From Escherichia phage WPEC2: a stretch of 64,000 bases of DNA. The position numbers and the translations under genes are program-made. How positions within the stretch are numbered: the stretch's first letter is position 1; each line of letters opens with the position of its first letter. Location: sequence record PV691511.1; one strand, written 5' to 3'. The notes under the pieces were generated by a model. The model had not been told where the DNA came from. It was given only the letters and a program-made list of their open reading frames with translations, and did no database searches. Positions 17,954 to 20,250 of this stretch are shown here, in pieces.

Positions 17954-18913
17954 TTAGATTCCAATGATAGTTGCTGCTCGTTTATCCTTGGATCTGGTGT
18001 TTGCTCTACTACGTGACAAACCGCCGCAAGATTCACAACGAATGATATCGAAAGAACTTACCGCAGTGTGGTATTGTTTACCAGTAACAACGTGAACGTG
18101 ATCACTGCCACAACGAGAACAACGGACCTTCTCATCTGGGTAATAAGCGGATAAGTTAGGATGCTGTGGAATCCACGGAAGGATTTTCATATACAAATCA
18201 CGGAGTGAAACAACATCACCATCATTGTAAATCTGCATACGTTCAAAAGCATCACGATCACCTTCACAACATGCTTTCCATAAAGGGAACCCCTCGTTAT
18301 CCAGTTTTTCACTTTCTGTTTCGAAATATGCTCCCATTTCTTTAAGGGAGTTGGAAGGAAGTGCAAATTGTTTCTTAGCTGCCTTCAATGTATCAACAAC
18401 TACATAATTAGAAGGAGGAGCCATATCGTGATATGCAAATCGTTGGTTAATGTATGCACGGTCAAACTTATATCCGTTGTGTGCCACAACTACATCTGCC
18501 TCATTCAGAAGGTTCCAAAGATCTTGGCAAAGCTCCCAATCATCTGTATGATCAATATCAAAAAGAGGATAAGAAGACAAGTTCTTACCTTCCACTTCAC
18601 CAGTATACAGGTCAGCAGAAGAGTAAGATAACAAATAACCCCTACGAATTACTTGATCTGGAGAAATGAAGGCTTTGAATCGACGGAAAGTATATGCAAT
18701 CTCTGGTGCAGTTTCAACATCAATAATTTTAATAACTGGTTGTTTCTTTTTAACTGGTTCTTGTTTACTTGCTCCAAATCGTGCAAGGAAATCGTTCACT
18801 GTGCTTTTTCTTGTTGGACTACCTAAAACAATTGCTGCAATATTACGAGAAGACATACCCTCTGCACTCATACTAAGGATATCTGCTTTCTGCTCTTCTG
18901 TTAATCTGCTCAC
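17954..18913 (-). CDS. DnaQ-like 3'-5' exonuclease with N-terminal HTH and C-terminal zinc ribbon
   Basis: IIDVETAP, AHNGYKFDRAY, YNDGDVVSL segments; CSRCGS...CESCGG. Confidence 0.55.
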   Translation of the reverse strand: MSRLTEEQKADILSMSAEGMSSRNIAAIVLGSPTRKSTVNDFLARFGASKQEPVKKKQPVIKIIDVETAPEIAYTFRRFKAFISPDQVIRRGYLLSYSSADLYTGEVEGKNLSSYPLFDIDHTDDWELCQDLWNLLNEADVVVAHNGYKFDRAYINQRFAYHDMAPPSNYVVVDTLKAAKKQFALPSNSLKEMGAYFETESEKLDNEGFPLWKACCEGDRDAFERMQIYNDGDVVSLRDLYMKILPWIPQHPNLSAYYPDEKVRCSRCGSDHVHVVTGKQYHTAVSSFDIIRCESCGGLSRSRANTRSKDKRAATIIGI

Positions 18914-20040
18914 TCTGCCTCCTGTTGTGAGATGTATGACTGAAGCATACTCTCAAATGTTGTATCGTCATTATCCCAGCGTTTCATGTATACCAACTGG
19001 AAAATTGTTTCTATCCATTCATCTGTTGTCATATGGACTTCTTCTCCATCCCAAGAAGTAAAATTAACACCATCTGGGAACCACGAGTAGTAAGTATCTT
19101 TAACTGTTTGGAAAAGTTCTGCTTGAGTTTTACAAGCTGAAAGAAGATTAAAACAAGTAATATCTCCGAACTTAATATCAAAATCTTGATAAGGTCGGAT
19201 ACTATCTGTTTTATCTCCCATTAGCATCTGATATGCTAACCAGTAACTGCCCCAACCTTTAACTTCTTTCTTTTTACCTTTATCTACGATCCATATATCG
19301 CCAATAGACTCGTCAATAAGAATTATATCTGGATTTTTAAATACTCCATCCTCTTTGTAGAAATTAAAAAGGATACTAGGAGTATGTAAACTATCTTTAT
19401 CTATAGACACTACGATATAAGAAAATTTACCCGTCCTTTTATAATCTTTATAACCTTGGAAACCATACTTCTCTAACTCATCATCAGCTTCTATTACAGT
19501 AACAACATCACCATTGTGGAACTCCACAAGATAATCTTTGGTTTCTGAAAGCTGAAGTGGTTTGATATCTAATCGTTCAGATTTATATTCTACAGGCATT
19601 TTGAAGGCGTGTCTGAAAGTTTTTCCTACGCCAATAACTCCGCAATATTTTTCTAAACGTAGATGTTTTAGAATACCTAAGACTTTTGTTTTAGCTGCTT
19701 GGAAGGTGTGTCCGATATCTTCTGGCGGGTATTGCTTATCAATGATTTCGAACTCTTCCTTTGTGAAGGGACGTTTGTTTTTGGAGGCTCTTTCTGCATT
19801 TGTATCTCCTAGCCAACCTCCAATTTTAGTCTTGCTTTTACCCCAAAACTCTGTCTTATTTTTAAATTCCTTTTGAGCACCTGAAGGGATGTGCTTCGCA
19901 ATGATTGTTCTTTTCTCTAATGCAGACGCTGCTTGGAAAGCGATCTGATCATAATCAATTGCAGCTATTGTTTCTTCGTTGACATATAAATGAAGATCTT
20001 CAGGTTTAATTAAAATATAACCGCTAATATTTCCCCCTAA
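18910..20040 (-). CDS. hypothetical protein; reading frame open about 147 codons upstream of first ATG
   Basis: track ORF 18910..19599 continues in frame without any ATG/GTG/TTG up to the stop of 20041..20250. Confidence 0.4.
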   Translation of the reverse strand, partial: LGGNISGYILIKPEDLHLYVNEETIAAIDYDQIAFQAASALEKRTIIAKHIPSGAQKEFKNKTEFWGKSKTKIGGWLGDTNAERASKNKRPFTKEEFEIIDKQYPPEDIGHTFQAAKTKVLGILKHLRLEKYCGVIGVGKTFRHAFKMPVEYKSERLDIKPLQLSETKDYLVEFHNGDVVTVIEADDELEKYGFQGYKDYKRTGKFSYIVVSIDKDSLHTPSILFNFYKEDGVFKNPDIILIDESIGDIWIVDKGKKKEVKGWGSYWLAYQMLMGDKTDSIRPYQDFDIKFGDITCFNLLSACKTQAELFQTVKDTYYSWFPDGVNFTSWDGEEVHMTTDEWIETIFQLVYMKRWDNDDTTFESMLQSYISQQEAE

Positions 20041-20250
20041 TTATTCATCGTCATCCTCTGTTGAGAATGTTTTAGTATACGGACATTGACGACTTTTCGG
20101 GATTGCTATAACTTCATCTTGGTTAGCGTTAGAATAGTAGCAATATTTTGTATTGCCATTAACTTCAGAATCAGACAAGATTAAAGTAATTTGACCTGCT
20201 GCTACTGTGAAACTAAAAGCTAAAAGAACGACTGTCAGAATCTTTTTCAT
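20041..20250 (-). CDS. small secreted protein with acidic C-terminus
   Basis: signal-peptide-like MKKILTVVLLAFSFTVAAG. Confidence 0.5.
   Translation of the reverse strand: MKKILTVVLLAFSFTVAAGQITLILSDSEVNGNTKYCYYSNANQDEVIAIPKSRQCPYTKTFSTEDDDE

Follow-up and report, generated by a model that had tools for sequence, protein, structure and literature searches.

A proposed AUU-class start codon for the full-length flap endonuclease gene of Escherichia phage WPEC2 and its relatives

The window analysed here, a stretch of 64,000 nucleotides (nt) from Escherichia phage WPEC2 (PV691511.1), carries on its minus strand a gene that most likely encodes a 372-amino-acid (aa) flap endonuclease (FEN)/5'-3' exonuclease of the T5 D15/T4 RNase H kind, as judged from its predicted fold. 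Alignment of its start region with those of relatives makes it highly probable that translation initiates at a non-canonical ATT codon, 20028-20026 (Table 1). The 229-aa "exonuclease" listed for this gene in related phages is an artefact, produced by gene finders that recognize no start other than ATG, GTG or TTG.

A long frame with no canonical start

On the minus strand, 376 sense codons are open from 20040 to the TGA at 18912-18910, directly after a TAA at 20043-20041, and the first ATG, GTG or TTG among them is the ATG at 19599-19597, which is codon 148. The original prediction, namely that the frame of the open reading frame (ORF) 18910..19599 stays open upstream to the preceding stop and holds 147 startless codons, is correct in both coordinates and description. 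When the 101 stop-to-stop frames in the window that span 100 codons or more are compared, this leader is the longest; the next longest comprise 68 and 57 codons, and their translations are of low complexity and antisense-like. The probability that 147 codons remain open is about 2.8e-5 from base composition, and the probability that 147 sense codons include no ATG, GTG or TTG is about 5e-4 under the phage's own codon usage, in which these three make up 5.0% of sense codons. The startless leader is a real feature, far beyond chance. Other long startless leaders (56841-57818, 55732-56049, 34990-35355 and others) were considered as further genes with ATH starts (H being A, C or T) and were rejected, as they have the appearance of antisense or low-complexity noise.

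A tblastn search with the 376-aa conceptual protein returned 1212 phage records, 900 of them with a coverage of at least 80%. The family phrog_107 ("exonuclease") aligned to residues 14-371 and is also matched, with an E value of 5e-7, by the first 147 aa on their own. Comparison of the first 143 codons with those of seven relatives gave proportions of nonsynonymous differences (pN) of 0.16-0.28 and of synonymous differences (pS) of 0.65-0.82, the latter saturated, and these values are similar to those of the rest of the gene. Because the frame has been kept open under purifying selection despite saturation of the synonymous sites, the nuclease gene almost certainly runs through the startless stretch, and the proposal that these 441 nt are coding is borne out by the tblastn coverage, the phrog_107 match and the excess of pS over pN.

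A sequencing or assembly error that conceals a start codon or a change of frame, one of the options raised originally, has prior plausibility alone to recommend it. The region matches phAPEC8-like Phapecoctavirus genomes (phAPEC8, WPEC4, nieznany and others) with an identity of 99-100%, and 64 independently sequenced GenBank records share it at a DNA identity of at least 95%, 40 of them at least at 99%. Five close records or contigs read across the junction are the same as the window or differ by one base upstream of the Shine-Dalgarno (SD) sequence, and dozens of independent metagenome contigs, many of them divergent, keep the same architecture. The chance of such an error is practically negligible.

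The ATT codon and the start regions of relatives

At its 5' end the frame has the sequence TAA TTA GGG GGA AAT ATT AGC GGT TAT, in which the ATT at 20028-20026 is the sole near-cognate codon properly spaced from an SD sequence, AGGGGG. The spacing of 4 nt is the mode for the genes of the window (14 of the 49 with a match of at least 5/6 to AGGAGG). The option that the evidence favours among those offered originally is therefore the rare ATT start just after a GGGGGA element, which is the SD sequence itself.

Relatives were drawn from GenBank phages, IMG/VR, JGI/ENA metagenomes and Logan contigs, and 21 distinct start-region sequences (loci labelled L0xx) with protein identities of 53-100% were tabulated. 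The homologous start codon is ATC in nine of them, ATT in eight and ATA in four, and in none is it ATG, GTG or TTG. AGGAGG, AGGGGG or AGGAGA stands 4-5 nt before the ATH codon in all 21 sequences, and in none of the 21 does a canonical codon intervene between the ATH and the in-frame stop before it. The start can be placed at ATC in L014, L042, L043 and L045, because an in-frame TAA lies immediately 5' of the ATC and the Gly codon that follows it varies synonymously (GGT/GGC/GGG). The first canonical codon of L029 is codon 201. The most distant members, L035-L037, have an ATG nine codons downstream of the ATT or ATA; the SD sequence precedes the ATT/ATA and not the ATG, and the peptide encoded before the ATG, KI[TS]x[EK]F[KN]TISM, is conserved. 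Automatic gene calls in close relatives place the start at eight or more different positions, as expected where a canonical start is lacking.

The third base of the start codon shifts among T, C and A and is never G, although synonymous sites are saturated in the lineages compared, and for this reason the weak start appears to be maintained by selection. Outgroup orthologues start canonically, a few residues at most from the position aligned with the ATT: with TTG in Vequintavirus (rV5-like; AGGAGG-GTCT-TTG, the same 4-nt spacer) and with ATG in Certrevirus PBES02, both of these codons being aligned with the ATT, with ATG in Nankokuvirus PAK_P5 and with GTG in Vibrio phage ICP1. Within the first 150 codons, members of the ATH-start clade (L010-L029 and the window, 19600-20028) contain 0, 1, 1, 2, 2, 3, 4, 5 and 7 in-frame ATG, GTG or TTG codons, where about 7.5 are expected and the canonical-start outgroups have 4-10. 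This depletion may reflect selection against internal starts that would compete with the weak one.

Two other in-frame ATT codons lie slightly downstream, at 20016-20014 and 20010-20008, within the non-conserved extreme N-terminus. They are at least 16 nt from the SD sequence or have no SD sequence at all, and the intervening (S)G[YF] is conserved as residues while its codons vary synonymously and is therefore translated; a start at either of them is very improbable.

Stop-codon readthrough from the upstream gene, a further option of the original prediction, fails on the relatives, in which the upstream ORF is in another frame, is double-stopped or is an unrelated gene. More broadly, readthrough, frameshifting or bypass would fuse the upstream 69-aa signal-peptide protein to the nuclease, and such a fusion finds some encouragement in the TAA that is in frame with the nuclease in the window and in the database protein P0005 (444 aa), which resembles it. 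L010, L011/ECGD1 and L047 have the upstream ORF in a different frame, L014, L042, L043 and L045 have two in-frame stops, and L035 has a DNA methyltransferase gene upstream; there is no conserved frame relation. Folding of the mRNA around the junction gave no structure beyond shuffled controls (z = +0.5), and an Rfam scan of the junction gave nothing significant. A fusion is thus extremely improbable, and the TAA is in frame in the window by coincidence, because the relatives vary in frame relation and even in the identity of the upstream gene. P0005 (L033 1501-2835) was examined as a natural fusion and rejected as a gene-calling artefact: the DNA behind it has a TAG at the junction, its translation fails to give the query, and the call fits a genetic code in which TAG means Gln. 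Gene calls recoded at TAG can mimic natural fusions in a large protein collection.

Several points weigh against initiation at the ATT. The SD sequence of the window is imperfect (AGGGGG), and an initiation efficiency of 1-5% seems low for a replication/repair enzyme. ATT, ATC and ATA are the exact codon set of isoleucine, so that the pattern alone also fits a conserved internal Ile; the only counter-arguments are that four lineages have in-frame stops directly before the codon and that the others lack an upstream canonical codon. The depletion of canonical codons is uneven among phylogenetically non-independent lineages and is suggestive rather than independent evidence, and a purpose for the weak start, be it dose limitation or IF3 sensing, is something that we only infer. 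The literature searched yielded no N-terminal peptide, toeprint, initiation-arrest profiling or IF3-sensitivity data for this gene, nor an earlier report of its start codon.

Table 1. Features of the nuclease locus (positions are those of the window)
Feature	Position	Strand	Basis or remark
Full-length FEN-family 5'-3' exonuclease/flap endonuclease coding sequence	18910..20028	-	372 codons + TGA, proposed ATT start
Proposed non-canonical start codon ATT (AUU)	20026..20028	-	SD distance, relatives, outgroup alignment
SD sequence AGGGGG	20033..20038	-	Read from sequence; followed by spacer AAAT (20032-20029)
N-terminal 142 codons after ATT, omitted by public annotation	19600..20025	-	Alignment A1, model, PF02739 mapping
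Internal ATG, Met144 of the full protein	19597..19599	-	Start in all Phapecoctavirus annotations inspected; no SD sequence before it
Gap-filling small ORFs	19677-19799 (= L001 2102-2224, L002 2000-2092)	-	Overlap the conserved coding frame
Upstream 69-aa ORF, signal peptide, phrog_4641	20041..20250	-	TAA 20043-20041, 12 nt before ATT
Downstream DnaQ-like 3'-5' exonuclease gene	17954..18913	-	Pfam RNase_H_2, E 9.5e-10
Promoter-like site TTGACT-17 nt-TATTAT, TG before the -10	20318-20290	-	Consensus scan
Terminator-like hairpin and T-run	20289-20266	-	Abuts the promoter-like site; terminator annotated there in phage ASO2A

The full-length protein and its annotation

The AlphaFold2 model of the protein (predicted local distance difference test score, pLDDT, 86.8) has a PIN-like alpha/beta nuclease fold that superimposes on solved FENs, with three strands of the central sheet at residues 21-25, 93-100 and 127-133. 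The N-terminal 142 codons specify the first strand, on which the invariant Asp of IDYDQ lies, as well as helices and the two further central-sheet strands of the PIN-like domain. The carboxylates invariant in alignments A1 and A2 are D25/D27 of the IDYDQ motif (D29/D31 in A1), E180-D182-D183 (EADD), D210/D212 (DKD) and D272/D275 (GDKTD); from the resemblance of these motifs to those of T4 RNase H and T5 D15, the clusters may correspond to FEN catalytic positions. At residues ~127-137 (CGVIGVGKTFRH; window 19630-19650, minus strand) the strand that bears the second catalytic Asp in T5 D15 (D68) and T4 RNase H (D71) seems to have a Gly instead, both in the window and in relatives. This FEN subfamily may therefore differ from T5 D15 and T4 RNase H in the composition of its metal site.

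The homology to FENs is visible by fold only and not by sequence search. Pfam gave no meaningful match to the 376-aa frame of the window, and a sequence-profile search of the PDB gave just spurious low-complexity matches to designed "Pizza" proteins. Six more distant relatives score 23.7-28.3 bits against PF02739 (5_3_exonuc_N), below the gathering cut-off of 34.3; positions 31-144 of this profile correspond to residues 107-224 (mapped via the protein P0035), and Met144 falls at about position 68 of the 164. By its fold the protein belongs to the FEN superfamily, and by curated score it lies outside PF02739. T5 D15, T4 RNase H and the bacterial ExoIX/FenA show only 12-21% sequence identity to it; they comprise ~270-305 aa and have canonical starts, whereas the protein of the window has 372 aa with extra insertions. 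Members of the same family in Vequintavirus, Certrevirus PBES02, Nankokuvirus PAK_P5 and Vibrio phage ICP1 show 27-42% identity over the full length and have a similar replication/recombination gene neighbourhood.

These orthologues decide against a start at the internal ATG. It could be supposed that the 229-aa protein from ATG 19599 is the sole product and that the upstream 147 codons are an untranslated relic, in keeping with the use of this ATG in all Phapecoctavirus annotations inspected and with the fair conservation of Met144. The annotated orthologues from Vequintavirus CarlMeissner, PBES02, PAK_P5 and ICP1, all with canonical starts, are nonetheless full length. Their alignment begins at the extreme N-terminus, the N-terminal domain is present and both Asp residues of the IDYDQ motif are kept, so that the orthologues do not begin at the internal ATG, an outcome that the original prediction had named as one that would overturn it. 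The upstream frame is open and under purifying selection with saturated synonymous sites, and ATG 19599 has no SD sequence before it. The short product would lose ~40% of the catalytic N-terminal domain; according to the model, a 229-aa protein without the first three sheet strands and the first-strand Asp cannot be a functional FEN. We regard the relic hypothesis as highly improbable and retain the full-length gene.

All six public records inspected carry a truncated protein, of 229 aa or, in Justusliebigvirus, of 344 aa. In the phAPEC8 RefSeq record and in WPEC4, ASO2A and EF1-1 it is the 229-aa "putative exonuclease" from the internal ATG (18910..19599). The Justusliebigvirus records ECGD1 (L004 697-1731) and UAB_1 (L032 497-1531) have their start at a GTG that comes 32 codons into the frame, past the conserved ATT, which drops the first strand and the invariant Asp motif; the annotation error thus differs by genus. 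The phAPEC8 RefSeq record (YP_007348489.1) and WPEC4 also list "hypothetical proteins" of 30-40 aa that are read in other frames of the unannotated N-terminal part; these overlap a conserved coding frame and are very probably spurious. Recognition of the full-length gene would correct the annotation of a replication/recombination-module enzyme in well over 100 deposited Stephanstirmvirinae genomes, many of them phage-therapy candidates, whose current records list half of the protein, which could not be catalytic, and in some cases spurious small ORFs in the gap. Gene finders limited to ATG, GTG and TTG systematically miss such genes.

Initiation at a weak start and the transcription unit

The initiator fMet-tRNA pairs with AUU, AUC and AUA through a mismatch at the third position. 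In E. coli, these codons initiate at ~1-2% of the level of AUG, and infC and pcnB are the only confirmed natural AUU genes (Hecht et al., 10.1101/063800). The AUU/AUC codon of infC is the target of autoregulation by initiation factor IF3, which discriminates against such codons (PMC5499595). We propose that the ribosome would be directed to the AUU at 20028-20026 by the SD sequence AGGGGG 4 nt upstream, where fMet-tRNA would read the codon with its third-position mismatch and, by analogy with the E. coli AUU starts, IF3 would disfavour the pairing and hold the output to a few percent of the AUG level. With so weak a start, the amount of a nuclease that could be harmful would stay low and might respond to IF3. 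That its purpose is a low nuclease dose relative to the operon neighbours, the RdgC-like and DnaQ-like exonuclease genes, is a tentative suggestion, somewhat less probable than not but more plausible than a timing of expression that responds to IF3.

The nuclease gene resembles infC and pcnB in having a near-cognate start of the AUU class behind an SD sequence and in the phylogenetic conservation of an AUH codon, AUU/AUC across bacteria for infC and ATT/ATC/ATA across 21 lineages for the phage gene; the expected outcome, by analogy, is likewise low and IF3-sensitive initiation. It differs from both in being a phage nuclease gene and not one for a host translation or RNA-processing factor, and from infC in having no autoregulatory logic, the product being a nuclease and not IF3; its start, moreover, is a proposed one. 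These comparisons provide good support for regarding the gene as a new, conserved and clade-wide example of initiation of the infC/pcnB type, if not as a categorically new one. It would stand as a third AUU case beside infC and pcnB, conserved over a whole clade of phages of E. coli, Salmonella and Klebsiella; all three AUH codons interchange there and AUG never appears. It could serve as a natural system for studying why weak start codons persist and how IF3 fidelity shapes viral gene expression.

An unlikely extension of this analogy is that the AUH start acts as a regulatory sensor, FEN synthesis being gated by the ratio of IF3 to ribosomes or by the initiator-tRNA pool, just as infC senses IF3; if so, the nuclease would be switched on at one particular stage of infection only, and the phage's own initiator-like tRNA(CAU) might help. 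This tRNA gene (32610-32688, plus strand) is one of two for tRNA(CAU) in the phage and lies in the cluster 30763-32688. Its acceptor, D and T arms are like those of the E. coli initiator tRNA, with position 1:72 unpaired (A1*C72), and its anticodon stem keeps one of the three initiator-type G:C pairs. The three G:C pairs in the anticodon stem of the initiator tRNA are what IF3 inspects. It was considered as a special initiator, but no link to the AUH start emerged, similar tRNAs being present in many unrelated phages (Erwinia, Caulobacter, Aeromonas), some of them without the AUH feature.

Translational coupling may also supply the site with ribosomes that have finished the upstream ORF, 8-18 nt away, and the 69-aa ORF is a possible coupling partner. 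A stricter variant, compatible with initiation at the AUU, holds that most or all initiation at the codon comes from ribosomes fresh from termination on the upstream ORF (termination-reinitiation) and not from free 30S subunits. The upstream ORF stops 8-18 nt before the ATH at every locus examined, its stop is often embedded in the SD sequence as TAGGAGG, and a GTGA overlap points likewise to coupling of the downstream gene. Tight gene packing is normal in these phages, however, so that proximity says little; the upstream gene is not conserved, being a small secreted protein at most loci and a methyltransferase in L035, and a strong SD sequence at optimal spacing is enough for de novo initiation. 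Overproduction of IF3 also lowers re-initiation in E. coli (PMC2268962), and coupling would not escape IF3. We give this variant a real chance, though a clearly minor one, and keep to AUU initiation as such.

The overlap is formed by the GTG start of the downstream DnaQ-like gene and the TGA of the nuclease gene (GTGA, 18910-18913, minus strand), and it suggests translational coupling along the operon; in WPEC4 the DnaQ-like gene is annotated from a start further downstream. From its promoter-like and terminator-like sequences, the segment 20266..20318 is likely the start of a transcription unit with the 69-aa ORF, the FEN gene and the DnaQ-like gene. Transcripts from the promoter-like site would begin within the 5' arm of the hairpin, so that the hairpin could end transcription arriving from upstream and the promoter could start it anew.

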